Source: an uncultured Lachnospiraceae bacterium
GTDB lineage: Bacteria > Bacillota > Clostridia > Oscillospirales > CAG-272
Assembly: GCA_964466625.1 (NCBI GenBank)
Contig: CAYXQF010000002.1
Span: forward strand, 1-56,771
DNA: 56,771 bases
Direction of reading: 5' to 3'
Position numbers and translations under genes: made by a program. This document shows positions 4,319 through 35,220 of this stretch, one piece after another (the first letter of the stretch is position 1; every line of letters begins with the position of its first letter). The notes below the pieces were generated by a model. The model was not told where the DNA came from. It did no database searches and was given only the letters and a program-made list of their open reading frames with translations.

Positions 4319-4336
4319 ACATCAAAAGGAGATATT

Positions 4337-6247
4337 ATGAAAAAGCTGATCTCGATCATCATGGTATTGGCACTCTGCCTTACAGCCTTTGCCGCTTGCG
4401 GCACAAATGAAAGCCTCGTTGCAGCAGGCGATTATCTTTTCAACCTTTATAAAAACGATGCCACCGTTACCCCTTCCGACTTTGAAGTTGCAGGCCGCGT
4501 TATGGTAGACGGCGTGCTCTACACCGTTGAATGGACTGTCGATTCCGAAGAAGTTACCATCACGGAAAGCGAAAAAGACGGTTTCTATCTCGTTGACATC
4601 AACGAAAAGACCGAAACCGAAGTTGCTTACACCCTCACCGCTACCATCAAAAATGAAGCAGGCAAATCCGTAGCAAAGACCTTCGCTCGCACCATTCCTG
4701 CATACAAAGTATTCTCTTATGCGGAATATGCGGCAGCAGCAGACGATTCCACCGTTGTGGTAAAAGGTATCGTTGCCGGTATCTTCTCTAAATCCAATGG
4801 CTCCAGCGGCAACGGCATTTACATTCAGGACGAAAAGAACGAAGGCGGTTACTACGTTTACGGCCTCGTTGACGCTAAAGATCCCGAAGCAGACCTCGGT
4901 ATCAAGGTTGGTATGACCGTTGAAGCAGCAGGCGCGAAAGACACTTATAACGGCATGTACGAAGTTGTAAACGCTGCCATCACGATCCTCGATTCCACAA
5001 TCAAGGAAGTTACTCCCGTAGATTACACCGAGATCTACAAGAATGCGGAAAAACTTTCCGATGCGGCACTCGTTGACAGACAGGCTATGCTCGTTACCAT
5101 CAAGGGCGCTGAGATCACCGGTCAGGAAACCGCCAGCGGTTACTACAAATTCTCCCTCGACGGTAAGGAAGCTTACGTTCGTATCTCTTCCTCCAACAAC
5201 TGCATCACCAAAGATGAACAGACCGCTTTCATCGCGGCTCACACCGAAAACTTCGGCTACACCGCTGATATCACCGGTATCGTTTCTCTTTACAGCGGCA
5301 ATTTCTATCTCATTCCTGCAGATGCAAATGCACTCGCAAACTTCAAGCTTCCCGAAAGAAGTGCTTCTGAAAAGCTTGAAATGGAAGTTGGCACTGTTGA
5401 GATCGCAGGCGTGATCTCCGAAAACACAACAATTGCTCTTCCCCAGACAGGCGCAACCTACAGCGATGTTACTTACGCTTGGACTTCTGACAGTGAATAC
5501 GCAGTCGTTGACGGCGCGAACCTCGTTGTAACCGTTCCCGAAGCTCCTGCAACCGCAACACTCACCCTCACCGCTATCTGCGGCACGGAAACCGTTACCA
5601 AAACCTTCGCCGTCAGCCTTACCGCTCTCGCAACAGAAGCTGACGTTGTGAATGCTGCTTATGCACTCAACGCAGGCGAATCTATCCCCGGCACATACAC
5701 ACTCTCCGGCGTGATCACCGAAATCGACACTCCTTACAGCGAACAGTACGGCAACATCACCGTTATCATCGTTGTTGGCGATATGTCCGACAAACCCATC
5801 ATGTGCTACCGCCTCAAGGGTGAAGGCGCGGCTGATCTCGCAGTTGGCGACAACATCACCGTAACAGGCACGATCACCAACTATAAAGGCACCGTTGAAT
5901 TCAATAGCGGTTGCACTCTCGACGCGGCAAAATCCGCTACAGCGCTCGTTGACGAAGCATTTGCTCTGGCTGAAGGCGCTTCCATGGACGCAAAATGCAC
6001 CCTCACCGGTGTGATCACCACCATCGACACTCCTTATAGCGAACAGTATGGCAACATCACCGTTACCATTCAGATCGGTGATATGGCTGAAAAAGCGATC
6101 ATGTGCTACCGCCTCAAGGGCGAAGGCGCGGCTGACCTTGCAGTTGGTCAGACCATCACCGTTCACGGCGAGATCATGAACTATAAAGGCACTGTAGAAT
6201 TCGGCAGCGGTTGTGTGATCGTTCCCACAGTCACAGCAGCAGAATAA
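4337..6247 (+). CDS. Multi-domain lipoprotein with several OB-fold-like modules, one Ig-like module and a duplicated ~100-aa C-terminal module
   Basis: Lipobox 'AFAAC'. Segments of the type 'VVVKGIV...NGIYIQD...VGMTVEAAGAKDTYNGMYEV' and 2x '...ITVTGTITNYKGTVEF' resemble nuclease-associated OB folds. It lies 18 nt after the nuclease gene. Confidence 0.5.
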   Translation: MKKLISIIMVLALCLTAFAACGTNESLVAAGDYLFNLYKNDATVTPSDFEVAGRVMVDGVLYTVEWTVDSEEVTITESEKDGFYLVDINEKTETEVAYTLTATIKNEAGKSVAKTFARTIPAYKVFSYAEYAAAADDSTVVVKGIVAGIFSKSNGSSGNGIYIQDEKNEGGYYVYGLVDAKDPEADLGIKVGMTVEAAGAKDTYNGMYEVVNAAITILDSTIKEVTPVDYTEIYKNAEKLSDAALVDRQAMLVTIKGAEITGQETASGYYKFSLDGKEAYVRISSSNNCITKDEQTAFIAAHTENFGYTADITGIVSLYSGNFYLIPADANALANFKLPERSASEKLEMEVGTVEIAGVISENTTIALPQTGATYSDVTYAWTSDSEYAVVDGANLVVTVPEAPATATLTLTAICGTETVTKTFAVSLTALATEADVVNAAYALNAGESIPGTYTLSGVITEIDTPYSEQYGNITVIIVVGDMSDKPIMCYRLKGEGAADLAVGDNITVTGTITNYKGTVEFNSGCTLDAAKSATALVDEAFALAEGASMDAKCTLTGVITTIDTPYSEQYGNITVTIQIGDMAEKAIMCYRLKGEGAADLAVGQTITVHGEIMNYKGTVEFGSGCVIVPTVTAAE

Positions 6248-6267
6248 ACAGATCTTCCAAAGCAAAA

Positions 6268-6300
6268 GGACAGAGATTTTCAAAATCTCTGTCCTTTTTT
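6268..6300. terminator. Bidirectional intrinsic terminator between convergent genes
   Basis: Hairpin GGACAGAGATTTT/AAAATCTCTGTCC flanked by an A-run and a T-run. Confidence 0.75.
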
Positions 6301-7021
6301 AATTAAATTCATCTTTCAATTTTTCAAAAGCCGCAAACGCTGTTTTTTCCCATGCGATGGGAGTTATGGATATGTAACCGTTTCGGTATGCGTTGATGTC
6401 AATGTTCGGATCTTTATCCTTCGATTCCACAGGCTCACCGACTTGAATATACATATCGTTTCCTTTACAAACAAACGCATCGGAATAAAACATTCCGCCC
6501 TGGCGCGTAATGCGAAAGCCTTTACTTTCTTTCGGGATATTCACGTTATAATGACCGTTTTCCGCAAAAAGATCGTTTTCAAAAATAAAATCCATCACTT
6601 GGTCCATCTGTGCAATTGCCGCTTCATAATCGTGGGGTTCCGCAGAAAAAGCGATCCCTCGGATCCCAAGGCGCGCCCCCTCCTGGATCACGCCGACCGT
6701 CCCCGAATAGGCAATATCTTCTCCGAGATTAAGTCCCAGATTCACACCGGAAATGACAAGATCATAGTCCGCACCAAGTCCCGTCACACCAAAGCGCACG
6801 CAATCGGCAGGGGTGGAATCCATCGACCAGACCGTCACGTCGGGCGCGATATCCACCTTTTTGATCTCCGTTACACGGCGAAAATCAATGGCTTGGCTCA
6901 TGCCGCTCTGTTCAAATTTCGGCACCACCACGGTCACCTCGCCGTATTTTTTCGCCCATCGCACAAGATGCGGCAAAGCAGGCGAGGAAATTCCGTCATC
7001 GTTGGCAATCAATATTCTCAT
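6299..7021 (-). CDS. surE: 5'/3'-nucleotidase SurE
   Basis: N-terminus 'MRILIANDDGISSPAL'. An ATGA start/stop overlap with the upstream gene favours the Met at 7021 over the TTG at 7027. Confidence 0.9.
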   Translation of the reverse strand: MRILIANDDGISSPALPHLVRWAKKYGEVTVVVPKFEQSGMSQAIDFRRVTEIKKVDIAPDVTVWSMDSTPADCVRFGVTGLGADYDLVISGVNLGLNLGEDIAYSGTVGVIQEGARLGIRGIAFSAEPHDYEAAIAQMDQVMDFIFENDLFAENGHYNVNIPKESKGFRITRQGGMFYSDAFVCKGNDMYIQVGEPVESKDKDPNIDINAYRNGYISITPIAWEKTAFAAFEKLKDEFN

Positions 7022-8004
7022 AACCAACCCTCGCTTGCCTTTTTATATTCACCGAGAAGCGTATCTGCTTCCGCGATCAGCGCTTTCATTTCTTTCTTGC
7101 TGTAAACGGTGGCACCGCTTGCCGAAGCATGACCGCCGCCGTGATATTTTTCCGCAAGCGCATTGATCGTCACAAAGCGTGAGCGCAAACGCACACGAAT
7201 GGATTTATCCGCACCCTCAATGAAAGCGATCCAAATAAGACTATTTTTGATCGAATCCATATAAGAGACGGAAGCGCCTGCTTCTTCGCTCGAAAGATTA
7301 AATTTCTTCTGCATCGCGCGGTCAACGTAGAGATAAACCACACCGTTTTCCGTGATCTTCATGCGCTTATAAACGTACGCTTGGAATTTCAGCGCGTCAA
7401 AATCCTTGAGATAAAGGTGCGCATAGAGCATATCCGTATCCACGCCAACATCAAGAAGCATACCTGCCAGACGCATCGTATCACCCGAAACCGAGCGGAA
7501 GCGGAATCTGCCCGAATCCGTGACCATGCCCGTATAGATATATTTTGCTGCTTCTTCATTGATCGTAAGCTCTGTGCGGAAAGCATCATAAAATGCGGCA
7601 ACCATCTCACAAGTAGAAGAGCGTTCTTCTTCCACCCAGGAAAGATCGCCATAGGGGGAAACGTCGATGTGATGGTCGATCTTCACAAGCTCACGGCAAA
7701 GTGCATATTTGGGATTGGAAATGCGTTCGGTCGTCGCGGTATCCAAAACGATACCGAGCGCATCACTGTAATATTCATCGGGTTTTGCCTCGTCTTCCCC
7801 ACCGAGAAAACCAACGTAATCGGAATAGTCACAGTTCAAAAGAAGGATTTCCTTTTCAGGGAAAGAAAGGCGCAAGATCTCTCGCAAGCCTTTGGTGGAG
7901 CCAACGGCGTCACCGTCGGGACGCTTGTGGCGGAAAAGGATAATTTTTTGATATTCCCTGATCTTTTCTAAAATTTTAGCCATCGCTTCGATATTCATCG
8001 TCAT
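7018..8004 (-). CDS. DHH/DHHA1 phosphoesterase (NrnA-like oligoribonuclease/pAp phosphatase)
   Basis: Motifs 'HKRPDGDAVGS', 'DHHIDV' and 'GGGHASASGA'. ATGA overlap with the upstream paralogue. Confidence 0.85.
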   Translation of the reverse strand: MTMNIEAMAKILEKIREYQKIILFRHKRPDGDAVGSTKGLREILRLSFPEKEILLLNCDYSDYVGFLGGEDEAKPDEYYSDALGIVLDTATTERISNPKYALCRELVKIDHHIDVSPYGDLSWVEEERSSTCEMVAAFYDAFRTELTINEEAAKYIYTGMVTDSGRFRFRSVSGDTMRLAGMLLDVGVDTDMLYAHLYLKDFDALKFQAYVYKRMKITENGVVYLYVDRAMQKKFNLSSEEAGASVSYMDSIKNSLIWIAFIEGADKSIRVRLRSRFVTINALAEKYHGGGHASASGATVYSKKEMKALIAEADTLLGEYKKASEGWL

Positions 8005-8936
8005 TCCTCCATCAACTGTTCGAGATCTTTCAGCATCGCCATCGCTTCTTCACGGTTTTTGAGCGTAGCGCCGCTGGCTTTTTCATGGCCGCCGCCACCG
8101 TATTTTTTCGCGATGGGATTGATATTATAGCGAGAAGAACGGATCTCACAAAGCACACCTTCGTCGCTTTCCGTGAAGTTCACCCAGATATCCACACCGC
8201 GAATATCCGACATGACGCCCACCATGCCGCGAGAAATCGTAAAAAGGCTGGCGTCATAGCTTTTCGCTTCGTCATACGGGGTGTAAATATACGCCACGTT
8301 TTTTTCGGTAAACTGCACCTTGAGAACAAACTGCGCACGCAATTTCATATGCGAAAAATCATCGGCATAAAGACTGCGATAGATATCTGTCGTGGAAAAT
8401 TTCTTTTCCATCAAAAAAGCTGCGATGCGGAAAGTATTGGCATTGGTCGAATCATAACGGAAACGACCGGAATCGGTGATCATGCCCGTATAAAGAAGTT
8501 TTGCCGCTTTCGGTGAAACACACCAGCCGCAAGCCATCGCCAAAGCGGTGACAAGACCGCAACAGCTCTCATAAGAAGTATCGGTAAGCTCACATTCCGC
8601 GATCTTTTCACAGAAGATGTGGTGGTCGATGCGTATTGTTTTTTCGGCGAGCGTATAGCGATCATCGCTGATCAGCGCCTTTGCGGAAGTATCCAAAATC
8701 ACGGCAAGTGCGCCTTGATACATGCTGTCTTCAACGGTATTCATCACGCTGTCTTCCATAAAAGCATATCGCCCTGCTTCATCACCCACGGCAAGGATCG
8801 TTTTTTCGGGATAATTTTCCTGCAAAATGTTTTTTAGTCCCAGTTGGCTGCCCAAAGCATCGCCATCGGGATTTTTATGGCGGTGCAAAATCACGGTGTC
8901 ATATGCTTCGATATATTTTCGTATTTGTTCAAACAT
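8001..8936 (-). CDS. DHH/DHHA1 phosphoesterase (NrnA-like), paralogue
   Basis: Motifs 'HKNPDGDALGS', 'DHHIF' and 'GGGHEKASGA'. The start is moved to Met38 of the track ORF (MFEQIRKY), which has a GAAGAGG RBS. Confidence 0.85.
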   Translation of the reverse strand: MFEQIRKYIEAYDTVILHRHKNPDGDALGSQLGLKNILQENYPEKTILAVGDEAGRYAFMEDSVMNTVEDSMYQGALAVILDTSAKALISDDRYTLAEKTIRIDHHIFCEKIAECELTDTSYESCCGLVTALAMACGWCVSPKAAKLLYTGMITDSGRFRYDSTNANTFRIAAFLMEKKFSTTDIYRSLYADDFSHMKLRAQFVLKVQFTEKNVAYIYTPYDEAKSYDASLFTISRGMVGVMSDIRGVDIWVNFTESDEGVLCEIRSSRYNINPIAKKYGGGGHEKASGATLKNREEAMAMLKDLEQLMEE

Positions 8937-9037
8937 AAAAACCTCTTCACTTCGATTGTTGATTGAAATATAAATGCGTATATTCAGTATACCATATTCA
9001 CGCATATTTTGCAAAGGAAAATGGAAAGTTATAAAAG

Positions 9038-9070
9038 AAACTCTCACAGATTTTTATCCGTGAGAGTTTT
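9038..9070 (-). terminator. Intrinsic terminator-like hairpin downstream of the serine hydrolase gene
   Basis: Stem AAACTCTCAC/GTGAGAGTTT with U-rich flanks on both strands. Confidence 0.45.
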
Positions 9071-13576: not shown

Positions 13577-14524
13577 ATGACCGAAACCACAAAGACCGTC
13601 TTTGAAAAATACGAGATCCGCAAAACAAAAAAGCAAAAGACGGCGTTTATCGAATATATCAAAACCGTCGCCGCGGAGCGCGGATATTCTTGCCGCATGG
13701 AAAAAGGCTCGTTCGGCGCACGCAACATCGTCATCGGCGATCCCGCAAAAGCAAAGCTTCTTTACACGGCGCATTATGACACTTGTCCGCGTTTGCCCTT
13801 TCCAAACTTCATCACGCCGAAAAATTTTCTCATCTATCTGCTCTACCAGATCGTGATTTCCCTTGTCTTCATGATCGCGCCCATTCTCCTCGGCGTATAT
13901 CTTTGGTTCGTACTCGCAGGTGCGCTGGAACTTCCAAGCGAGCTTGCCGAGGCACTTTCCCTGCCGATCTTTTATCTGCTTCTCATCGGTATCATGCTTC
14001 TGCTCATGGCAGGTCCTGCCAACCGCCACACGGCAAATGACAATACCTCAGGCGTGACGCTGCTGCTCGACATCATGCACGCACTCCCCGAGGAAGACAG
14101 GGAAAACGTCGCTTTCGTTTTCTTTGATCTTGAGGAAATGGGACTTTTCGGCTCATCGAGCTTCGCTTCCAAGCATAAAAAACGCATGCAAGAAAAGCTT
14201 CTCGTCAATTTCGACTGTGTTTCCGATGGGGAAACGATACTCTTTGCGCTTCGCAAAGGTGCAAAAAAATACGCGCCTCTTTTTGAAAAAGCGTTTGAAC
14301 CAAATGAAAATATCCGTGTTGAAGTCTTGACAAAAGGCGTTTTCTATCCGTCCGATCAAGCAAATTTCCCCTGTGGTGTCGGTGTAGCGGCGCTGAAAAA
14401 AGCGAAATTTTGCAATTTGCTTTATATGGATAAGATCCACACGCCGCGTGACACCGTTTATCGTGAGGAAAATATTACATATCTCACGGACGGTGCGATC
14501 AAACTGATCCAAGAAATGAATTAA
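13577..14524 (+). CDS. M28 family metallopeptidase with a hydrophobic insertion inside the catalytic domain
   Basis: Candidate metal ligands in 'AHYDT', 'NDNTSGV', 'DLEEMGLFGS', 'NFDCVSD' and 'KIHTPRD'. About 75 hydrophobic residues are inserted after the first motif. Confidence 0.65.
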   Translation: MTETTKTVFEKYEIRKTKKQKTAFIEYIKTVAAERGYSCRMEKGSFGARNIVIGDPAKAKLLYTAHYDTCPRLPFPNFITPKNFLIYLLYQIVISLVFMIAPILLGVYLWFVLAGALELPSELAEALSLPIFYLLLIGIMLLLMAGPANRHTANDNTSGVTLLLDIMHALPEEDRENVAFVFFDLEEMGLFGSSSFASKHKKRMQEKLLVNFDCVSDGETILFALRKGAKKYAPLFEKAFEPNENIRVEVLTKGVFYPSDQANFPCGVGVAALKKAKFCNLLYMDKIHTPRDTVYREENITYLTDGAIKLIQEMN

Positions 14525-14530
14525 AAAAAC

Positions 14531-14559
14531 GGGAAGATTCAAAGATCTTCCCTATTTTT
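14531..14559. terminator. Bidirectional terminator hairpin
   Basis: GGGAAGAT-loop-ATCTTCCC with A/T runs, between convergent genes. Confidence 0.6.
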
Positions 14560-15244
14560 ATATACCGTATTTGATCTTTACTCTTTCAAGCTTTTCGCCA
14601 AAAGGCTTTGCGCAGAAAAAGAGGAAAATGAAGTTGGAAGCAGAATACAGGAGCGTGTGCGGCAGTGCTGTGAGGATCGCCGCCACATAAAGCTGCATGC
14701 TGAAATCTCCACCTGCCCAAACGACAGACCAGATATCCATGAGAAGCGAATAAAAAACACCTGCAAGCACGCCTGAAATCAGCAAGAGCGGCTTGTTTTT
14801 TTTGAGCCATTTTGCAAAAACACCTGCCAAAAAACCCGTCATACCCCATGCAAACATTTGAAACGGTGTCCAAGGTCCTTGTCCAAAATAGAAATTGGAA
14901 ATGATCGCGGAAAGCGCGCCCACGAGAAAGCCTGCTTCTCCGCCGAGATACATACCCGTGATCATCGTGAAGGTGGTAACCGGCTTGAAAAACGGCAGAA
15001 ATCGTCCTACGACGGAAAGTGCCGTCATCACGCAAACGATGATGAGCCGTCTTGTGCCGATCTTTTTCTTTTCAAATCCGCAAAGAAAAAGGGAAACGGA
15101 AAGCGCCGCCACCGAAACCGTGATAAAAGCATGGCGTTTTTCATCAAAAACGAAAATACCGAGAATCACGGCGATGGGAATCAGCAAAAATGGGATCAGA
15201 ATCCGAAAAAGATCTCTCACCTTTTTATTTCGAATGACGATCAT
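14558..15244 (-). CDS. ECF transporter S (substrate-capture) component, substrate unknown
   Basis: A 6-TM small membrane protein ('GQGPWTPFQMFAWGMTGF'). ATGA overlap with the ECF ATPase stop. It is the last gene of the T-A-S cluster. Confidence 0.6.
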   Translation of the reverse strand: MIVIRNKKVRDLFRILIPFLLIPIAVILGIFVFDEKRHAFITVSVAALSVSLFLCGFEKKKIGTRRLIIVCVMTALSVVGRFLPFFKPVTTFTMITGMYLGGEAGFLVGALSAIISNFYFGQGPWTPFQMFAWGMTGFLAGVFAKWLKKNKPLLLISGVLAGVFYSLLMDIWSVVWAGGDFSMQLYVAAILTALPHTLLYSASNFIFLFFCAKPFGEKLERVKIKYGI

Positions 15245-16875
15245 ACACACGTCCTTTCCCCGTTGGCAAGACAAAGGTCAATGACGTCTTTCGCGGTGAC
15301 CGCGCCGTCATAATATCCTTTGGTCATGCGCGCGGTGGCAGTGGTATAAAACGTATTCGCAGAAAAGAAAGCCTTGGGTGTATCAATGGATATCATTTCT
15401 CCGCGGAAAAAGAGCGCACAGCGGTCTGCGATCTCGGCGGCAAATTCCATATCATGTGTCACCAAAACGATCGTCACGCCATTTTGCGAGAGTGTGCGCA
15501 GGATCTTCGCAATGCCGTCCTTCGCATAAGCGTCAAGTGCTTTAGTGGGTTCGTCAAGAAGGAGCAATTTTGGCTTTGTGGCAAGCACCTTTGCCAGCGC
15601 CACAAGCTGTTGTTCTCCACCGCTGAGATCATACGGGTGTTTATCATAAAGCGGCGAAAGATCATAAGGAAGCATTTCTGCCTCGGCACCTGCTTCCAAA
15701 AGCTCTTCACGCACCGTATTTTTGAGGAAAACCGTCTGTACGTCCTGCGGCAGATATGCCAAACACTCACGGTAAAGCGCGCCGTTTTTGTAATCCTTCA
15801 GCTTTTTGCCAAACACACGCACGTCCCCGTTATAAAATCTGCGGATCCCTGCCGCATTCACAAGCGTCGTGGTCTTACCCGATCCGTTGCCGCCGAGAAT
15901 ACAGAAGATCTCATTTTCATAAACCGTAAACGAAAGATTTTTCAGCACGTCGGGCAGATTTCTTTCATAACGAAATGATACGTCGCGAAAAGCGAGTGCT
16001 TCTTTTCCTTGCGCAAGCACCTCTTTTTTTGCGAGTGTTCGCGTATCGTTCTGAAAATTTGAGGTGATATACTGTCTGCCATCACGCACAGAAAGCGGTA
16101 CTTCACCTGCACCGCCCGTTTTTTGAAAGACCTGAGTGGCGGTCGGCAAAGCAAGTGAAAAGCGATCTTCCGCGCGAATTTTCGCGATCGCACGTCGGGG
16201 TGTGTCATACGCCATCATTTCGCCCTCGCGCAAAAGCAAAAGCTTGTCACAAACGGGAAAAACCTCTTCCATGCGATGTTCGATCATGATGACTGTCATC
16301 GAAAGCTCACGGTGAAGCTTGGAAACGGTGGCAATAAATTCTGCGGCGGCGATCGGATCGAGCTGTGCTGTCGGCTCATCAAGAAGCAGGATCTTCGGTC
16401 CCATGACCATCACGGAAGCGAGAGAAAGGAGCTGTTTTTGTCCGCCCGACAGCGAAGCCACATCTTTTTCAAACCAATCTTCAATGCCGAAATATCCTGA
16501 GATCTCCGCCACACGGCGACGGATCTCATTCTGCTCCACACCGAGGTTTTCCAGCCCAAAGGCAAGCTCATGCCAAACCTTATCCGCTACGATCTGCTGC
16601 TCGGGTTTTTGAAGTACATAGCCGACTTTCGCGGCGGCATCACGGTCAGAAAGCACCTCCTGCTTTTCGCCCATCAAGCGAATGTTACCGCACATTTCGC
16701 CAAGGGGAGCAAGTTCTTTTTTCAAAAGGCGCATCAGCGTGGATTTTCCGCTGCCCGTCGCACCGGCAAGAAGCACAAAATCCCCTTCATTCACCGAAAA
16801 AGACACGTCACGGATCGTCGGCGTTTGCATATTCGGATAAGTAAAGCTTAAATTTTCGACTGCAAGTATTTCCAT
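15241..16875 (-). CDS. ECF transporter ATPase, fused EcfA1-EcfA2
   Basis: Two ABC cassettes: Walker A 'GATGSGKST' and 'GGNGSGKTT', signatures 'LSGGQKQ' and 'LSGGEQQ', Walker B 'LLLDEPT' twice. Confidence 0.9.
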   Translation of the reverse strand: MEILAVENLSFTYPNMQTPTIRDVSFSVNEGDFVLLAGATGSGKSTLMRLLKKELAPLGEMCGNIRLMGEKQEVLSDRDAAAKVGYVLQKPEQQIVADKVWHELAFGLENLGVEQNEIRRRVAEISGYFGIEDWFEKDVASLSGGQKQLLSLASVMVMGPKILLLDEPTAQLDPIAAAEFIATVSKLHRELSMTVIMIEHRMEEVFPVCDKLLLLREGEMMAYDTPRRAIAKIRAEDRFSLALPTATQVFQKTGGAGEVPLSVRDGRQYITSNFQNDTRTLAKKEVLAQGKEALAFRDVSFRYERNLPDVLKNLSFTVYENEIFCILGGNGSGKTTTLVNAAGIRRFYNGDVRVFGKKLKDYKNGALYRECLAYLPQDVQTVFLKNTVREELLEAGAEAEMLPYDLSPLYDKHPYDLSGGEQQLVALAKVLATKPKLLLLDEPTKALDAYAKDGIAKILRTLSQNGVTIVLVTHDMEFAAEIADRCALFFRGEMISIDTPKAFFSANTFYTTATARMTKGYYDGAVTAKDVIDLCLANGERTCV

Positions 16876-17720
16876 TTGATTCTCACCCCCACTTCCAAAA
16901 ACGTCGGCATCATAACAAGTGCCGCATAAGCAACATAAGAAATATACGTTAAGATGGTCCCTGTGTTCATTTCAAACATAGGATAATAGCGCACCGACAC
17001 GGCGCCTGCTGCCATGCCGATGATCGTCAAACCTGCAAAAAGCACCGTCAAGCCAAGGAAAATCGCATCTGCGGCACCAAATCGAAAAATTTTGAAAAAC
17101 GTTCGTTTTCCCGTGCCGTAGCCACGCGCGGTCATGCTGTCCGCCGTGACGATGCCATTTTCCAGCGCCCACGTCACCATGACGGAAAAAATACGAATCC
17201 CTCCGCGAAAACGGTCGATAATATTATCTTCCTTATAAAGCCCCATGCCCTTTTGCGCATCGTTTACCTTTTTCGTTTGCGCGGCAAAAAGAGGAATATA
17301 TCTAAGTGTCATAGAAAGCATGAGCGAAAGCTTCGGTGAAAATGCACCGAAAAGATAGAGCAGCTTATCCGCTGTCATCATCGAAGAAAAATGGGAAAAC
17401 CACAGCATCACCGCCGCGAGCATTACGCCAGAAACCGCACCATAGATCACGGCTTCCAGCGTGATAGGGTTATCATTCAAGACAAAAAGCACCGTTTTTC
17501 CGTTGTGATAAAAGAGCGGATTGAGAATCAGCGCCCCTAAAAACAAAACCAAAAGCCAGCAGAGCAAGCGTTTTTTCTGTCCCGACACAAAAAGGAAAAG
17601 GAGCGCACCGACAAGCGACAATGCGATCATAACGGGATTCATCTGAAACATGACGAGTCCTGCCGCCATCAAAAAATATAAAAAGACTGCAATAGGATTT
17701 TTCTCTGATAACACTGTCAC
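16848..17720 (-). CDS. ECF transporter transmembrane T component (EcfT/CbiQ family)
   Basis: A multi-TM protein of the expected size directly upstream of the ATPase. The start is uncertain: GTG at 17720 or 17714, with the AGGAGG spacing favouring 17714. Confidence 0.8.
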   Translation of the reverse strand: MTVLSEKNPIAVFLYFLMAAGLVMFQMNPVMIALSLVGALLFLFVSGQKKRLLCWLLVLFLGALILNPLFYHNGKTVLFVLNDNPITLEAVIYGAVSGVMLAAVMLWFSHFSSMMTADKLLYLFGAFSPKLSLMLSMTLRYIPLFAAQTKKVNDAQKGMGLYKEDNIIDRFRGGIRIFSVMVTWALENGIVTADSMTARGYGTGKRTFFKIFRFGAADAIFLGLTVLFAGLTIIGMAAGAVSVRYYPMFEMNTGTILTYISYVAYAALVMMPTFLEVGVRIKWKYLQSKI

Positions 17721-17752
17721 ACTCCTCCTTTCTCCGCTTTTCTTTAGGAAAA

Positions 17753-18030
17753 GAAAAGCTTGGCAAAAGAAACCGTTCGGGGTTCTTCGTTTTTTTAACT
17801 AAATTTTTTATTCTACGCTCCGTATGAAAACAAAGCTTGGCGAAAGAAACCGCTCGAGGCTCTTCGTTTTTTTAACTAAATTTTTTATTCTACGCTCCGT
17901 ATGAAAACAAAGCTTGGCAAAAGAAACCGCTCGTGGTTCTTCGTTTTTTATTTTAACTAAATTTTGTTCCGTATAAAAATAAAGTTTGGCAAAAACCCTT
18001 TCATGACTCTTCGCTCTGTGTTTTTGTAAA
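17753..18030. repeat. Tandem repeat, ~77-bp unit, 3 full copies plus a degenerate fourth
   Basis: The motif AGCTTGGC recurs at 17757, 17834 and 17911, and a degenerate form (AGTTTGGC) at 17983. Units 1 and 2 are nearly identical except around a small hairpin (GAAACCG-NTCG-NGGYTC) that precedes a T-run. Confidence 0.9.
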
Positions 18031-18035
18031 TTTTA

Positions 18036-18096
18036 CCCCCTCAACCGGGATTCCAAAGGGATCGGTCCCTTTGGCGGGGGAAAGGGGCAGAGCCCC
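18036..18096. repeat. REP-like palindromic element, copy B
   Basis: GGGATTCCAAAGGGA-TCGG-TCCCTTTGG followed by GGGGC-AGA-GCCCC. It lies directly after the stop of the 519-aa gene. Confidence 0.55.
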
Positions 18097-18098
18097 CT

Positions 18099-19658
18099 TT
18101 AAGAAAAGTCCTTGCCAAGCGTCAGCGTATATGTCCATACGATCTCGTCCCCGTCGGAAAGATCGTAGCCATCACAGCCGACGTCCGCGCGCTCACCGCC
18201 AACGGTGTACGTCCAGCCGGAAAGATCACCGAAATCAAATTCATAAAGATAACCGATTCCTGAAACGTAAACAAGTCCTTCTGCGCCTTTTTTATCTATA
18301 TGGATTTTATACGTTCTCGCCGCTTCGGTGAGAATATCATAAACGGTGTCATTCGCATCGATCGCAAACACGGTCACGGGAAGGATCACACCATCTTCGG
18401 GAATATGATCGTCCCTGCCTGCCACGGTGTCACAGCGTATCGTCATGGTGACACTACCCACGATCTCACCCTTTTCCGTTTCACCGCCGTAATAGCCCTC
18501 ACGGCTTTCAATTTTCATAAACCAAACAAAACAGAGCAAAAGAGCAAAAACGATCGCCACCGCAAAGAAATTCTTCGGGTGTCGCTTTCCTGCAAGGAAA
18601 AGCACAAGGCATGCGACGAGTGCCACAGCAGCAAGGATCAACGTCACGGTCACGCGATAGTCAAGAGGGGTACCGCTGTCTGTCGGCTCGTTTTTCAAAG
18701 GAGAGAACACTGCATTCTCCGAAAGATCCAGATCGTAAAAAGATGTTTTTTCCGTCTGCATGCGGCGAAGCGCGATCAATGCGCAAAATGCCTGCGCCGT
18801 CGCGTTTTCACTCACTTCCCCGTCCAAGGTGTGCGCAAAGGCACCGTTTGGCAGACGAAAAACCGAAAGCGTATCAAGAAGTGTTTTTTCATTTTTTATA
18901 AAACGCGCATCGGTAAAAATATCAATATCCAGCGCCGCAAGCGCCATGATGACCTGCGCCGTGCTCTCTGCGTTCACCACGCCGTAGTTCACATAATGCC
19001 CGTCCTCACGCATGAGTGCAGACAAGCAATTGACGGCATCGGAAAGTGCTTTTTGCACCTTTTCCTGTTCGCGAAAATGCGCGAGTGCTTGTACCGCCAT
19101 CGCCGTCACGTCCGCATCGGCGCGCTCACCCGTCAGCGCAAAACCACCGTCCGCAAGTTGTTTGGAAAGGAGCATTTCTAAAATGGAATCCGCTGTATAT
19201 ATTTCAGAAAGAAGCCCGTTTGCCGCCATGTGAAGCCCGAAAACAAGGCTCATCACACCCAGCTTGCCCACGGAATCCTCGGCAGTTTCTGCCGTAAACT
19301 CATTTTTTACGCCACACGCAAGAAACGCGAGTGCATATTTTTGTTTGGTCACCGCATTGGATATTTTATTTTCCGAAACGTAAGCGCCAAGCGCTTGCAG
19401 ATAGTTCGAAAAATCATAAGCTTCGCCGCTCTGCGCGAGCGCCAGCACATACCATTCCGCACCACCCGCATTTTCACAAAGCGCACCGTCAAGCCATGCC
19501 TGCGCGTCTTCCTTTGCGGTGCTCCCTGCTTGATAGGTGAAAATACCATCAAGCAGAGCATCTGTCTTTTCGACAGAGCTTGCGGCGCTCACCGTCCCCG
19601 CAAAAAGAGAAAAGATCAGCGCCGTCAAAAGACAAAAAGCTCCTATTTTATGCTTCAT
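18099..19658 (-). CDS. Membrane-anchored protein: signal peptide, alpha/alpha-toroid (prenyltransferase/terpene-cyclase-like) domain, TM hairpin, DUF4430 (transcobalamin-like C-terminal) domain
   Basis: Signal peptide 'LFAGTVSAAS'. Repeated 'DGGF/NGAF..A.AQA..AL' helical-repeat signatures. Two adjacent TM helices (LILAAVALVACLVLFLAG / FFAVAIVFALLLCFVWF). C-terminal 'SGWTYTVGGERADVGCDGYDLSDGDEIVWTY'. Confidence 0.6.
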   Translation of the reverse strand: MKHKIGAFCLLTALIFSLFAGTVSAASSVEKTDALLDGIFTYQAGSTAKEDAQAWLDGALCENAGGAEWYVLALAQSGEAYDFSNYLQALGAYVSENKISNAVTKQKYALAFLACGVKNEFTAETAEDSVGKLGVMSLVFGLHMAANGLLSEIYTADSILEMLLSKQLADGGFALTGERADADVTAMAVQALAHFREQEKVQKALSDAVNCLSALMREDGHYVNYGVVNAESTAQVIMALAALDIDIFTDARFIKNEKTLLDTLSVFRLPNGAFAHTLDGEVSENATAQAFCALIALRRMQTEKTSFYDLDLSENAVFSPLKNEPTDSGTPLDYRVTVTLILAAVALVACLVLFLAGKRHPKNFFAVAIVFALLLCFVWFMKIESREGYYGGETEKGEIVGSVTMTIRCDTVAGRDDHIPEDGVILPVTVFAIDANDTVYDILTEAARTYKIHIDKKGAEGLVYVSGIGYLYEFDFGDLSGWTYTVGGERADVGCDGYDLSDGDEIVWTYTLTLGKDFS

Positions 19659-20457
19659 TTTTTTCTTTACCCGAAATCTTACGTGTGTAAATCACAACGG
19701 CGAATGCTACGCAGATGGCAAACACAATGATAAATGCCGCCACACCAAGCATCGTGTAGATCATGGCATTCGAAAGACCTTCCACATTTACCACGCAAAC
19801 AGGCGGAACCAAGGTCATACCTTCTTTTTCTGCACTGATGAGAAGTTCACCGGCATCATCAAGCGTCAAAGTAACTTTGCCGTTTGCATCGGTGATAAAC
19901 TCGGTCGCTTTGCCGTTTTGAGTGATCACAGCACCCGAAAGCGGTGTGCTGACGGGGTTCCAATTTTCATCGTAGCCTGCCTGCATGAGTGTGAGCGTCA
20001 CCTCGTCACCTCTTTCGCACTGATAGAGGATATTGCTGTCAAAATAGCTGTAAGTATCAGAAAAACCAAGCGTATCCGTGTAAACGAAAGCATAGATATG
20101 ATCGCCGCTCTGCACGGTGTCAAGCAAGCTGGAAGGGGAGGCATTGTTCACGTAATAGCCGTAAGAGCCGCCGTTTTCCACGCCCCAAAGTTTCACCATG
20201 GAGCGTCCCCACTCGGTTGCCTCGGAAATATAGCCGTTTTCGCCATCGAAAAATTCTTCGTGCGCGATACGCAAAACATCGTCAAGCGTCATATTATTTC
20301 TTTCAATCCACAATTCCGCACTCGCCAAGACAAGCGCGCCGTTTTCATCGGCGATGGTAACGTATACCCTATATCCCGGCTTCGAAGCGAAAACAGGCAA
20401 TGCAAACAAAGTAAACGCAAAAACTGCCGCAAGGCAAATAGAAATGATTTTTTTCAT
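19648..20457 (-). CDS. Secreted DUF4430-domain protein with an Ig-like/CarboxypepD_reg-like domain and a C-terminal TM anchor
   Basis: Signal peptide, 'GGSYGYYVNNASPSSLLDTVQSGDHIYAFVY', 'TDANGKVTLTL' and a C-terminal hydrophobic helix. AAAAAGGAG RBS. Confidence 0.65.
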   Translation of the reverse strand: MKKIISICLAAVFAFTLFALPVFASKPGYRVYVTIADENGALVLASAELWIERNNMTLDDVLRIAHEEFFDGENGYISEATEWGRSMVKLWGVENGGSYGYYVNNASPSSLLDTVQSGDHIYAFVYTDTLGFSDTYSYFDSNILYQCERGDEVTLTLMQAGYDENWNPVSTPLSGAVITQNGKATEFITDANGKVTLTLDDAGELLISAEKEGMTLVPPVCVVNVEGLSNAMIYTMLGVAAFIIVFAICVAFAVVIYTRKISGKEKNEA

Positions 20458-20505
20458 AAAAGATTCTCCTTTTTATTCTATACGGCAGTTTTGCTTGCCG
20501 TCATT

Positions 20506-21204
20506 TTATTTTACAGTAATCACACAAACGGGCGGAACAAGGTTCACGCCATCTTTTTCTGCGGTGATCACGTATTCACCTTTTTTATCAAGCGTCACGG
20601 TGACCTTGCCGTTTGCATCGGTCTTCATTTCGGAAGCTTTGCCGTTGATGTAGATCACAGCGCCCTCGGTCGCGGTGTCCAGCGGATTCCAGTTCGCATC
20701 GTAACCTGCCTGCATGAGTGTCAGCGTTACGCTGTCACCTTTTTTTGCGGAAACCGTAACAGCGTCAAAAAAGCTGTAAGTATCCGAGAAGCTGACCGTA
20801 TCGGTGTAGATATAAGCATACACATGGTCGCCTTCTTTCACTTCATCGGTAAGACCCATTGCCGAAGCGTTGTTGACACGATAGCCGTAAGAGCCGCCGT
20901 TTTCCACGCCCCAAAGTTTCACCATGGAGCGTCCCCACTGGGTTTCTTCCGCACGGAAGCCTGCCGCAGCGCCGCCTTCATAATTTTCATCATGCGCGGT
21001 GGTAAGGATATCGTAAATGGTGATCTTGCCGTCCGCGTCCGTGTCGGCAAGCGCGGTTGCCTGTGCCGAAAGAACAACTTCGCCGTTTTCATCGGCGATG
21101 CTCACGTATGCCACAGGACCTTTGGGTTCGGATTCGCACGCGGTGAATACGAAAACACCGAATGCAAGGACTGCCACAAGGCAGAGTGAAAAAATTCTTT
21201 TCAT
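20506..21204 (-). CDS. DUF4430-domain lipoprotein with an Ig-like domain (paralogue of 19648..20457)
   Basis: The start is moved to Met76 of the track ORF (MKRIFSLCLVAV...FTAC lipobox, AAAAGGAGAAAA RBS). Motif 'GGSYGYRVNNASAMGLTDEVKEGDHVYAYIY'. Confidence 0.65.
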   Translation of the reverse strand: MKRIFSLCLVAVLAFGVFVFTACESEPKGPVAYVSIADENGEVVLSAQATALADTDADGKITIYDILTTAHDENYEGGAAAGFRAEETQWGRSMVKLWGVENGGSYGYRVNNASAMGLTDEVKEGDHVYAYIYTDTVSFSDTYSFFDAVTVSAKKGDSVTLTLMQAGYDANWNPLDTATEGAVIYINGKASEMKTDANGKVTVTLDKKGEYVITAEKDGVNLVPPVCVITVK

Positions 21205-21280
21205 GATTTTTTCTCCTTTTATATTATAATATATGATACAGCGCCAAAGCGCGAGTATCCGAAGCATCGGCATTTCTCCC

Positions 21281-21326
21281 AAAACCAAAAATGCACTTTT
21301 TTGACGGATCTCATCAAAAAAGTGCA
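21281..21326 (-). terminator. Leader (attenuator) terminator upstream of the DUF4430 genes
   Basis: On the minus strand: TGCACTTTTTTGA-loop-TCAAAAAAGTGCA followed by TTTTTGGTTTT. It sits about 80 nt before the start codon at 21204. Confidence 0.75.
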
Positions 21327-21547
21327 GAAATTTCCTATCGCAACGCGCATAAGGCGCTCGGAGAAAAGCCGCATTTTCCAAATTTGCCCGAAAATGTGTT
21401 TCAACAAAGCTTCGCAAAACGGGGAGCATTCCGACTCAGGAACTAAGGTTCACATGACGGCAATGGCTGTTGCGTCGGATTTTCACCGAACTTTCCTCCT
21501 TACTTCCTTTTCTTACGAAAAGGATACCGTTTGCATCGTATTTCATT
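21281..21547 (-). promoter_or_regulatory. Candidate cobalamin-type riboswitch leader (aptamer about 21415..21520 plus terminator expression platform)
   Basis: The minus-strand RNA contains AAGGAGGAAAGUUCGGUGAAAAUCCGACGC. From memory, the consensus is AGGGAA..GGUG.AA.UCC...GC. It also contains GCCAUUG (compare GCCACUG), CCGUCAUGUGA (compare CGCUACUGUGA) and GAGUCGGAAUGCUCC closing against GGAG. A terminator follows. Confidence 0.5.
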
Positions 21548-21553
21548 GCTTCC

Positions 21554-21582
21554 ATTATAGCACAGCGATTTTTTCTTGTCAA
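21554..21582 (-). promoter_or_regulatory. SigA-type promoter with perfect consensus hexamers
   Basis: Minus strand TTGACA-17 nt-TATAAT (reverse complement of 21577..21582 and 21554..21559). Confidence 0.75.
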
Positions 21583-21690
21583 TGTATGCTTGTCCTTTTT
21601 TCTTGTAGAAAAAGGATTTTTCGGCGGCAGTCTGCAAGAGCAGGAAATGAAAAAGCTTGCATAATCGCATGAGAAATCCCAAAATAACTA

Positions 21691-21719
21691 TTGTAATTTG
21701 CACCCGATTGCGTTATAAT
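21691..21719 (+). promoter_or_regulatory. Probable asnS promoter
   Basis: TTGTAA-17 nt-TATAAT, about 58 nt upstream of the asnS ATG. Confidence 0.55.
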
Positions 21720-21776
21720 AACAATATATATCTAAAAATTAACAATAATTTTCTCAAATGAAAGGGACTATAAATT

Positions 21777-23171
21777 ATGAAACGCACAACGATCAAGGAG
21801 TTATATACCTCTCCCGAAAGTTTTGGCGGCAAAGAAGTCACCGTTGCGGGCTGGATCCGCACTGTACGCGCAAGCAACGTGTTCGGTTTTATTGAACTCG
21901 CAGACGGCAGCACTTTCCCCAGACTGCAAATCGTACTCGAAGCGGACAAGCTTGCTAACTATACGGAAATCGCAAAACTCAACGTAGGCGCGGCAATCGT
22001 TGCCAAGGGTACTTTTGTTCTCACCCCCGATGCCAAACAGCCTTTTGAACTCAAAGCAGAAAACATTGAGATCGAAGGTGTTTCCACACCCGATTTCCCG
22101 CTCCAGAAGAAGAAAACTTCTCTCGAATTTTTGCGCACGATCCCGCATCTCCGCGCAAGAACCAACACTTTCCAGGCTGTATTCCGCGTTCGTTCCGAAG
22201 CGGCTTACGCGATCCACAAATTCTTCAATGAAGAAGGCTTCGTTTACGTAAACACCCCCCTTATCACCGTTTCTGACTGTGAAGGCGCCGGTGATATGTT
22301 CCGCGTAACTGCTCTTGATATGGACAATCCCCCCAAGACCGAAGACGGCAAAGTGGATTTCTCCCAGGACTTCTTCGGCAAAGCTGCAAACCTCACCGTT
22401 TCCGGTCAGCTCCAGGGTGAATGCTTTGCGCAGGCTTTCGCAAAGATCTATACTTTCGGTCCCACATTCCGTGCAGAACGCTCTTTCACACAGCGTCATG
22501 CGGCAGAATTCTGGATGATTGAGCCCGAGATCGCTTTTGCAGATCTTGGTGACTACATGGATCTCGCAGAAAAAATGACCAAATCCGTAGTGGCACACGT
22601 TCTTGCGGCTTGTCCTTACGAACTTGAATTTTTCAATAAATTTATTGATAACACGCTTCTCGAACGCTTGCATAATATAGTATCGAGCGATTTCGCACGT
22701 ATTTCTTACACGGAAGCGATCAAGATGCTCGAAGAAAGCGGCAAAGACTTTGATTACAAACCCTATTGGGGCTGTGATATGCAGACAGAACACGAACGCT
22801 ACCTCTGCGAACAGGTATTCAAAAAACCTGTATTCGTTACCGACTATCCGAAGGAGATCAAATCCTTCTACATGCGCCTGAACGATGACGGCAAGACCGT
22901 TGCAGCAGCAGATATGCTCGTTCCCGGCGTCGGCGAGCTCATCGGCGGCAGCCAGAGAGAAGAACGCCCCGAAATGCTCACAGCGGCTTATGAACGCTGC
23001 GGTCTGAACGAAGAAGATTACTGGTGGTACTCCGAGCTTCGCAAATACGGCACGACCCGTCACGCAGGCTTCGGTCTTGGATTCGAAAGACTTATTATGT
23101 ATATCACCGGCATTTCCAATATCCGCGACGTTGAAGCATTCCCCAGAACCACCGGCAACGCCGACATTTGA
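21777..23171 (+). CDS. asnS: Asparagine--tRNA ligase
   Basis: Class IIb aaRS: N-terminal OB '[25 protein letters not shown]', motif 2/3 regions 'FGPTFRAE' and 'GFGLGFERL'. Confidence 0.95.
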
Positions 23172-33893: not shown

Positions 33894-34033
33894 ATCTATA
33901 TATGGATATTTTTCACGTTTCTATAACCCATAAATTTTGAAAGAAAAAGTTGAGAAAAAACATAAGGAATTTCCCGTTTTCCAACGTATAATAAGTGAAA
34001 GCCAAAAAAATCCTTCAAAAAAGGAGAAAAAAC

Positions 34034-34588
34034 ATGATAGACAACGGTGCCAGTAGCTACCGCCGTTTTCTAAATGGAGAAGAAAGCGCTTTTGACGAGA
34101 TCATCAAAGCTTATCGTGAAAATCTCGTCTTTTTCATCAACCGCTATGTGCATGACATGAACGCCGCAGAGGATATTGCCGTCGATGCTTTTTTGGATCT
34201 GCTCGTTCATCGCCACCGCTATCACGGAAAAACCACGTTCAAAACCTATCTTTTTATGATCGGCAGAAGCCGTGCGCTTGATTATCTGCGGATAAAATGC
34301 CGCGAGATGACAGTACCTCTTTCGGAAGCAGAAAATGAACTGCCAAGTGTTCCCTCTCCTGAGGAATCCGTTTTTCAAAATGATGCCGCAAGAAGACTGA
34401 ATATGGCTATGGAAAATCTGCCCGAAGAAATGAAGATCGCCGTTCATCTGGTTTATTTTGAAAATCTTTCCTATGAGGAAACCGCACGCGTGATGAAAAA
34501 GACAAGAAAACAAGTGGATAACCTTTTATATCGCGCCAAAAATGAGCTTCGCTCCATATTAGGAAAGGAGGGCGTACTTCTTTTATGA
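34034..34588 (+). CDS. ECF-type sigma-70 family RNA polymerase sigma factor
   Basis: Region 2 'AEDIAVDAFLDLL...FKTYLFMIGRSRALDYLR' and region 4 'LVYFENLSYEETARVMKKTRKQVDNLLYRAKNELR'. AAAAGGAGAAAA RBS before the ATG at 34034. Confidence 0.85.
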   Translation: MIDNGASSYRRFLNGEESAFDEIIKAYRENLVFFINRYVHDMNAAEDIAVDAFLDLLVHRHRYHGKTTFKTYLFMIGRSRALDYLRIKCREMTVPLSEAENELPSVPSPEESVFQNDAARRLNMAMENLPEEMKIAVHLVYFENLSYEETARVMKKTRKQVDNLLYRAKNELRSILGKEGVLLL

Positions 34589-35220
34589 GAAGAAACGACA
34601 CGGAATTCAAAGCGGAAATTTTTCGCCGCTATGATATTCATAAGAAAAAACAACGAAAAAAATATATCACGGCAGGCTCCTCATGTGCCGCGGTCATGCT
34701 TTGTGCCGCGCTCACGTTGCCGCTCCTCACGGGCATGACAACAGAGGAAAGTGCGCCGCCTCTCACGCAGATCGAAAATGCCACCATCGCGACAACGACG
34801 GAAAGCATCGCGATACCCGACACGGTGAAGCTCTCTTTCGGTGAAAAAACGTGGGAATTTGCAGGCGAAGATGCCAAAGCCGTGATGGAATACCTCACGG
34901 AAAACCGCAGACCCGATTATCAGATATTCACCTACGGAGGTGCCACGACCACAGAAGCCACGACCTCGGAAGCAACCGCGGCGACTGACGGAAAAGACGA
35001 TGCCGCCGAGAACGGCAATTATCTTCTGACCGCATACTACCAGATGGATACGGCAACTGTCATAACGGCGGAATCCGCAACGATCTGCGGCACGTCAAGC
35101 ACAAAAAACGAGAACAGCAAAACTTATATTCTGACCGAAATTTATTGGGATTTCAAAAAGCTGGAAACGTTTTTAGATGATCTGAAAAGCGGCAAGTCCG
35201 AGGAAGGAGATACCCCATGA
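34585..35220 (+). CDS. Single-pass membrane protein, putative anti-sigma/sensor partner
   Basis: ATGA overlap with the sigma gene. It has a short basic N-terminus, one TM (AAVMLCAALTLPLL) and a Thr/Ala/Glu-rich extracytoplasmic domain. Confidence 0.45.
   Translation: MRRNDTEFKAEIFRRYDIHKKKQRKKYITAGSSCAAVMLCAALTLPLLTGMTTEESAPPLTQIENATIATTTESIAIPDTVKLSFGEKTWEFAGEDAKAVMEYLTENRRPDYQIFTYGGATTTEATTSEATAATDGKDDAAENGNYLLTAYYQMDTATVITAESATICGTSSTKNENSKTYILTEIYWDFKKLETFLDDLKSGKSEEGDTP

Follow-up and report, generated by a model that had tools for sequence, protein, structure and literature searches.

In the 56,771-nt stretch of an uncultured Lachnospiraceae genome that we call the window (GenBank assembly GCA_964466625.1, contig CAYXQF010000002.1, positions 1 to 56,771, whose numbering supplies the coordinates used here), a run of minus-strand features from 21582 to 14531 comprises a leader RNA, genes for three accessory proteins that we name P1, P2 and P3, and genes for an energy-coupling factor (ECF) transporter. 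We regard this locus as a likely cobalamin-repressed corrinoid-uptake operon of a gut Clostridia bacterium. The leader contains a compact cobalamin riboswitch aptamer, P3 is modelled as a membrane-anchored relative of transcobalamin, and the substrate-binding S component of the transporter has the B12 transporter subunit CbrT as its closest solved relative. A preliminary description, made from the letters of the DNA, gave the coordinates and gene order correctly; its proposal of corrinoid uptake was largely right on these same three features, but it assigned P1 and P2 to a domain family to which, as described below, they show no similarity in our comparisons.

Promoter and leader RNA

The operon opens with a sigma-70-type promoter (21554..21582, minus strand) in which TTGACA (21582..21577) and TATAAT (21559..21554) are separated by a 17-nt spacer and the −10 element is extended by a TG. 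This perfect promoter, already picked out in the preliminary description, is the sole 12/12 match of a promoter scan across 14400..21800, and five syntenic relatives retain both hexamers unchanged (relatives, cited where necessary by L numbers, are fetched related loci). The leader that follows, anticipated at about 340 nt with a terminator, runs for ~343 nt and ends at the P1 start codon (ATG, 21204). Its expression platform is an intrinsic terminator (21281..21326, minus strand), identified by a terminator scan and in the minimum-free-energy (MFE) fold, with a 15-bp stem (21326..21292) followed by a U-run. One pair of this stem is retained by a compensatory change in L085.

Between promoter and terminator lies an aptamer of ~121 nt built from helices P1–P6 (21414..21534, minus strand). 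Rfam models applied at their gathering thresholds gave zero matches in the entire window, and in a sensitive search of 701 nt the RF01689 (AdoCbl-II) model reached 32.9 bits (E 7.9e-6) against a gathering score of 36.5. Nevertheless, covariation, together with orthologous leaders that do pass RF00174, identifies the leader as a cobalamin riboswitch despite this sub-threshold score. In four syntenic relatives (L081, L082, L084 and L085), the leader is ~79% identical and the P3 proteins are 58–86% identical, so that in the more distant of the four the leader is better conserved than the protein; compensatory changes fall in helix P2 and in the P6-extension hairpins. A manual structure of helices P1–P6 pairs 98.8% of positions among close relatives, with 5 doubly substituted pairs, compared with 33–55% pairing in slid controls, and the single-sequence MFE fold of the leader recovers these helices along with the terminator (z −2.75). 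RNAalifold applied to mixed close and distant leaders gave a poor consensus, because MAFFT misaligned helices P1, P2 and P6, and was set aside in favor of the manual structure and a covariance model.

This covariance model, R1, was built from the close-relative leader alignment and run on 85 sources, where it found 72 matches, every one on the operon strand. Across these matches, in an alignment that was itself fitted to R1, 92.3% of cells are paired and compensatory change is seen in 26 of 32 pairs, compared with 27–52% pairing in slid controls; the covariation score of the same alignment is 0.292, compared with 0.02–0.05 when the 3′ partners are slid. Moreover, in 13 related loci RF00174 scores above its gathering threshold (37–93 bits) at the matching position, immediately before the operon, and the core sequence of the window leader is shared with shorter RF00174-positive leaders (L003, L051 and L078 were aligned). 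The riboswitch-like leader of the preliminary description, for which RF00174 and RF01689 had been named as the relevant models, thus falls short on Rfam score but stands on covariation and orthology.

Among the 80 fetched loci on which our locus counts rest, directly upstream riboswitch evidence is strong in 64, weak in 8 and absent from 8, five of which have no upstream DNA. Control of the operon by a B12 riboswitch, as originally proposed, is therefore supported both by covariation and by its recurrence in 64 of 80 loci. When 17 loci were searched with Rfam, 7 were called, and R1 added another 7 (L001, L011, L013, L016, L040, L042 and L053; E 7e-5 to 1.7e-13), each at the same position and strand upstream of the operon. 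The compact form of the riboswitch, ~105–135 nt long, falls under the Rfam gathering scores, and surveys based on Rfam probably under-count B12 regulation in Clostridia. We conclude from these comparisons that the leader is a genuine compact cobalamin riboswitch aptamer, with ligand binding predicted. In one relative, L074, riboswitch matches occur both before the binder genes (5945..6100) and between the P3 gene and ecfT (8819..8935), indicating that the binder and transporter modules can come under separate B12 control.

The aptamer and the terminator are both present in the window leader, and ligand-dependent switching between them would operate as follows. When B12 is low, the riboswitch would be unliganded and transcription would pass the leader terminator. 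When B12 is bound, transcription would end at the terminator (21326..21281). The operon would then be expressed only under B12 scarcity.

A transcobalamin-like protein beside a CbrT-like transporter

P3 (519 aa; 18099..19658, minus strand) consists of an alpha/alpha toroid at the N terminus, a transmembrane hairpin and a DUF4430/SLBB beta-grasp domain; its gene overlaps the end of the P2 gene by 11 nt, and an overlap there was already noted in the preliminary description. Residues 436–511 match PF14478 with 59.1 bits (cutoff 23.8; E 5.9e-16). In the AlphaFold (AF2) model, which has a pLDDT of 91, the toroid is followed by two long helices (334–355 and 361–380) and then by a domain with the element order b-b-a-b-b-b-b (399–511). 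Foldseek searches with this model returned transcobalamin, intrinsic factor or haptocorrin as all of the top 15 matches in the Protein Data Bank (PDB), and these matches covered both domains (E 1e-8 to 1e-7; ~520 aligned columns; target-relative TM-score 0.48–0.55). The next matches were the isolated beta domain of transcobalamin (5no0; TM-score 0.79) and a Ruminococcus gnavus protein (3U7Z). Sequence identity to the animal carriers is 10–13% and the root-mean-square deviation is 10–15 Å, a high value explained by a different orientation of the domains and by the inserted hairpin.

Transcobalamin, intrinsic factor and haptocorrin share with P3 an architecture of alpha6/alpha6 toroid plus beta-grasp domain. 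The animal proteins, however, are soluble and join their domains by a flexible linker, whereas P3 is anchored by a two-helix hairpin at the linker position; this hairpin would replace the linker and tie both domains to the membrane. A conserved basic loop, GKRHxKN, lies between the two long helices, and this arrangement, together with the N-terminal signal peptide, suggests a topology in which the toroid and the beta-grasp domain both face outward. On the strength of the structural model, we describe P3 as a membrane-anchored transcobalamin-like two-domain protein that is predicted to bind corrinoids.

By sequence, the toroid of P3 is closer to class II terpene cyclases than to transcobalamin. 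Prenyltrans and SQHop_cyclase match it below threshold, the P3 family profile matches squalene-hopene-type cyclases with an E-value of 8e-12, transcobalamin and intrinsic factor chains are absent from hidden Markov model (HMM) searches of PDB sequences with P3, and PF01122, the eukaryotic cobalamin-binding family, is not among the P3 Pfam matches at E ≤ 0.01. The toroid could accordingly be an envelope-acting enzyme or a lipid- or glycan-binding module of cyclase kin, with a link to B12 that is regulatory only, and the alignment of its DxD(V/A)TAM motif with the DxDD motif of the cyclases fits such a role. We consider this highly improbable. In the sequences from which the search pattern was built, V or A stands in place of the third and last Asp of DxDD, which argues against catalysis, and the toroid domain is extracytoplasmic. 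Moreover, the two-domain architecture is matched best by transcobalamin, intrinsic factor and haptocorrin, and an enzymatic or glycan-binding role leaves unexplained the conserved pairing with a CbrT-like ECF transporter under a B12 riboswitch.

The transporter genes follow P3 on the minus strand, with overlapping starts and stops as originally reported: ecfT (16848..17720; PF02361 CbiQ, E 2.2e-9, above cutoff), a fused ecfA1A2 ATPase gene (15241..16875; two PF00005 ABC_tran domains and a TIGR04520 score of 340.8 bits against a cutoff of 315) and the gene for the S component (14558..15244; PF07155 and PF12822, both above cutoffs). A bidirectional terminator hairpin found by the terminator scan (14531..14552, strand not assigned) closes the operon. 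These gene and family assignments make the module a dedicated group I ECF transporter, with EcfT, fused EcfA1A2 and the S component encoded together.

In a single-sequence search of the PDB, the only significant match to the S component was 6FNP_A (E 3.1e-10), a chain of 182 residues that we take to be CbrT, as the text of the structure paper gives no chain assignment. With a profile of 21 S-family members, CbrT scored 9.7e-15 and the next S component, 4hzu_S, 9e-4, placing CbrT ahead by 11 orders of magnitude in a comparison that covered solved structures. The reading of the locus as a corrinoid importer in the preliminary description gains support from this result, and the homology to CbrT suggests B12 and cobinamide as substrates. 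ECF-CbrT of Lactobacillus delbrueckii (PDB 6FNP; Santos et al. 2018, PMC5997447) has been shown experimentally to transport both compounds. Although both are ECF importers and CbrT is the closest solved relative of the window protein, identity is low (profile E 1e-14) and the two systems differ in organization. The L. delbrueckii protein uses a shared group II module with separate EcfA and EcfA′ and has no accessory extracytoplasmic proteins, whereas the window encodes a dedicated module with fused ATPases and an S component extended by ~55 N-terminal residues. This extra segment (residues 1–55; 15080..15244), conserved throughout the family, includes two hydrophobic stretches, and alignments to CbrT begin at residue 59–61. 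We can only speculate that it serves as a docking site for the P3 transmembrane hairpin.

The identity of the S component also bears on two other views of what the operon imports. Because EcfT matches PF02361, named "Cobalt transport protein", and the ATPase matches cbiO models, the transporter could be a CbiMNQO-type cobalt/nickel system. We give this view almost no credence: there is no CbiM/CbiN-type S unit, the vitamin-type S component is closest to CbrT, and TIGR02454, the CbiQ equivalog, reaches 19.9 bits where its cutoff is 111.8. It is also improbable, although somewhat less so, that the operon imports heme or another tetrapyrrole and that its transcobalamin-like proteins scavenge heme. 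This possibility is raised by lsa1836–1840 of L. sakei, an ECF operon in which the transcobalamin alpha-like and beta-like proteins are separate and for which heme-uptake phenotypes are reported (bioRxiv 10.1101/864751). By contrast, the window operon and those of at least 64 of 80 relatives are under the control of a cobalamin riboswitch, CbrT is the closest solved relative of the S component, and hemin is no competitor of B12 uptake by ECF-CbrT (PMC5997447).

P1, P2 and the conserved gene set

P1 (232 aa; 20506..21204, minus strand) carries the lipobox FTAC, and P2 (269 aa; 19648..20457, minus strand) has a signal peptide and a C-terminal transmembrane segment; the lipoprotein and the C-terminally anchored protein of the preliminary description are thus both recognizable. 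They are paralogues with 58% identity, and their family numbers at least 678 clusters, in which every named member is a "hypothetical protein" and none is assigned PF14478; a few members carry CarboxypepD_reg-like or LPXTG-anchor domains. Conserved motifs of the family include a DxDxDG loop and WGVENGGSYGY. An LPXTG anchor occurs in 12 of 40 relatives, and this variety of lipoprotein, transmembrane and LPXTG anchors indicates that the family is tethered to the surface in several ways.

All three accessory proteins had been described as DUF4430 proteins, but only P3 is recognizable as one. PF14478 failed to match P1 or P2 even at E ≤ 10, and it matched none of 40 P1/P2 family members at E ≤ 1. 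In hhalign comparisons of the trimmed domains, the N-domain of P1 and P2 aligned to the DUF4430 domain of P3 with a probability of 1.2–1.3%, and 8 of 60 column shuffles scored as high. The Pfam scans, the trimmed-domain comparison and this permutation control were thus all negative for P1 and P2 as DUF4430 proteins, and we treat the two as a separate, unannotated family. The AF2 model of P1 (pLDDT 91) has an N-terminal alpha/beta domain (31–132) with the DxDxDG loop and a C-terminal Ig/transthyretin-like beta-sandwich. Residues 31–132 follow the order b-b-a-b-b-b-b, in parallel with the DUF4430 domain of P3 (399–511), and remote homology to that domain is therefore possible on the basis of the models. 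Whole-chain Foldseek searches with P1 gave weak Ig-like matches (TM-score < 0.3) and no transcobalamin entry in the top 50, and profile searches of the PDB and fold searches with the P1 family found no known B12-binding domain.

What links P1 and P2 to P3 is the company that their genes keep. The P3 family comprises at least 879 clusters, and P3 relatives are found in at least 519 species-representative genomes, mostly of gut or rumen Clostridia. In 78 of 80 loci, the P3 gene is directly preceded by a P1/P2-like gene. Most loci have one such gene, and two are present in the window, L081, L085 and L060. In addition, P0120, an 845-aa protein from a 66.8-kb NCBI contig, naturally fuses a P1/P2-like module (profile columns 1–288 in the alignment) to a P3-like part that has toroid, transmembrane hairpin and DUF4430 domain, providing Rosetta-stone evidence that the two families work together. 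Whole-family hhalign comparisons of P1/P2 with P3 are dominated by this fusion and so are evidence of linkage, silent on domain homology.

Of 66 informative loci, 63 have a complete set of EcfT, ATPase and S-component genes on the same strand, and in 5 of the 63 this ECF module is upstream of the binder genes. The co-occurrence of DUF4430 genes, B12 riboswitches and ECF modules, which the preliminary description had proposed as a check, is seen in these loci, with strong riboswitch evidence in 64 of 80 loci. Conservation of this kind also helps in judging whether P1–P3 serve transport at all. ECF-CbrT functions without accessory binders (PMC5997447), and P1–P3 may therefore be dispensable for transport. 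They could instead hoard corrinoids at the surface, or strip B12 from host or dietary carriers, and leave the CbrT-like ECF transporter to import B12 alone. The activity of ECF-CbrT in proteoliposomes without a binder (PMC5997447), the 5 loci in which the ECF genes come first, the separability of the two modules in L074, each with its own riboswitch, and a description of surface B12 reservoir proteins in Bacteroides, in the part of the report available to us (bioRxiv 10.1101/2025.07.01.662609), all speak for such a role. We nonetheless think it unlikely, as the binder and ECF genes are tightly packed, with overlapping genes, and co-occur in 63 of 66 informative loci, and the conserved transmembrane hairpin holds P3 at the plane of the membrane, a position better suited to hand-over than to remote storage.

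The spacer between the P3 gene and ecfT, noted earlier as about 380 bp and filled with repeats, is 378 bp long and contains three tandem copies of a 77-nt unit (17750..17980, strand not assigned) that are 100, 92 and 69% identical to the reference copy. Read from the sequence, each unit includes a small hairpin between A/T runs. L081 has 1–1.5 copies, L085 has none and the whole spacer of L082 is just 22 nt, differences which indicate that the array is a recent lineage-specific expansion; it is probably not a core part of the system. As a second riboswitch, the repeats were rejected on the lack of any covariance-model match and a fold that is not significant (z −1.64); as an internal promoter, they offered just a weak 9/12 promoter-like site.

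Proposed corrinoid capture, known systems and wider implications

If the operon serves corrinoid uptake, then P3 would probably clamp the corrinoid between its toroid and beta-grasp domain, as transcobalamin does, and would probably release it to the adjacent S component at the membrane surface. P1 and P2 would most likely be outer capture or relay partners of P3. In the staphylococcal Isd system, heme is relayed from the cell wall to the membrane, and a relay from P1 and P2 to P3 would resemble it. A more elaborate, two-tier form of capture, in which P1 and P2 are a new corrinoid-binding or relay module that feeds P3 and the P3 hairpin docks on the N-terminal helices of the S component, is a possibility that we entertain with considerable doubt.

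Several observations weigh against corrinoid uptake as the function of the operon. Some have been met above: the RF01689 score below threshold, the sequence kinship of the P3 toroid with terpene cyclases and the absence of animal carriers from the HMM searches, the failure to find a known B12-binding domain with the P1 family, the autonomy of ECF-CbrT, and the heme uptake reported for an operon of the same components in L. sakei. In addition, no gene for a B12-dependent enzyme was found among the window genes scanned, and the literature, in which subscription journals were thinly covered, yielded no study that examines this family biochemically for corrinoid binding or hand-over. Together with the evidence from the riboswitch, P3 and the S component, these points lead us to hold corrinoid uptake as likely rather than certain.

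Operons of this general kind were predicted before, and the novelty claimed in the preliminary description was overstated. In the passages available to us, Burroughs, Balaji, Iyer and Aravind (2007; Biol Direct 2:4, PMC1796856) describe bacterial transcobalamin-like SLBB proteins that are secreted or surface-anchored; a toroid is often fused to them, and a second SLBB paralogue, likewise extracellular, often goes with them. Their genes lie beside CbiO-like and CbiQ-like genes in organisms without B12 synthesis, and B12 scavenging was predicted from this gene context; animal transcobalamin was proposed to have been acquired from such bacteria. The same passages call the SLBB clade very divergent, mention Ig-fused and LPXTG-anchored forms, and report no experiments. 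Both those operons and the window encode surface beta-grasp (DUF4430/SLBB) proteins, often fused to a toroid, with an extracellular partner. By contrast, a riboswitch, a CbrT-type S component and an inter-domain transmembrane hairpin, all present in the window, go unmentioned in these passages, and the partner protein described there is a paralogous SLBB protein, a similarity not detected for P1 and P2.

The L. sakei study (bioRxiv 10.1101/864751) likewise proposed an ECF system with extracellular transcobalamin-like scavengers, in that case for heme. Both operons encode ECF S, AA′ and T components together with exported transcobalamin alpha-like and beta-like parts, but these parts are separate proteins in L. 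sakei and are fused through a transmembrane hairpin in P3. Compared with these precedents, the sequence evidence makes our locus an ordinary member of a computationally known kind, with a predicted corrinoid function.

The preliminary description had also cast the system as a Gram-positive counterpart of BtuG and BtuH, surface-exposed, lipid-anchored B12 binders that are encoded beside a B12 transporter and improve acquisition (PMC8941943, PMC10404256). The resemblance holds for function, where the strategy is the same, but not for ancestry. BtuG has a beta-propeller domain, and BtuH combines PKD domains with a globular B12-binding domain reported to lack known structural homologues (PMC8941943), folds unrelated to those of the window proteins; BtuG and BtuH chains were absent from PDB searches at E ≤ 10 with P1, P3 and the family profiles and from the listed fold matches. 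Moreover, BtuG and BtuH serve a TonB-dependent outer-membrane transporter, whereas the window proteins adjoin an ECF transporter. A remark by Putnam et al. (2022; PMC8941943) on a btuH homologue of Firmicutes that lies close to an ECF-like cobamide transporter led us to consider P1 and P2 as BtuH homologues as well; this was rejected, with no sequence match and a BtuH B12 domain that is described as much larger.

Other features of the window and its relatives lie apart from the operon. An ECF-type sigma factor gene (33995..34588) is followed by an open reading frame (ORF) without a Pfam match (34585..35220). Next comes a tandem pair of serpin genes (35217..36479 and 36502..37755; E ~1e-94 for each), an uncommon arrangement in bacteria, and then a third ORF that equals them in size (37765..39027). 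A pair of neighboring DHH/DHHA1 phosphoesterase paralogues (7018..9047) lies beside surE, and Pfam at E ≤ 1e-5 matches nothing in a 653-aa ORF (4322..6283). The related locus L042 has two adjacent copies of Gut-1 RNA at its contig end (18..231; RF01706; 56.6 and 54.3 bits).

B12 is a contested nutrient in the gut, and the route by which gut Firmicutes acquire it is of interest. Identifying B12 transporters in many gut genomes has been called "an open problem" (Rodionov et al. 2019; PMC6593275). The gene set discussed here is present in at least 519 species-level genomes, in which its key accessory proteins are annotated just as "DUF4430 domain-containing" or "hypothetical". The points of most residual interest are the unannotated P1/P2 family, the transmembrane hairpin of P3 and the compact riboswitch subclass that Rfam thresholds miss. 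If P3 does hand corrinoids over to the S component, this would modify the textbook view that ECF transporters need no extracytoplasmic binding protein and would offer, in bacteria, a model of how transcobalamin and intrinsic factor arose. Should two-tier capture hold as well, then P3 would be the bacterial, membrane-bound form from which the animal B12 carriers may derive.

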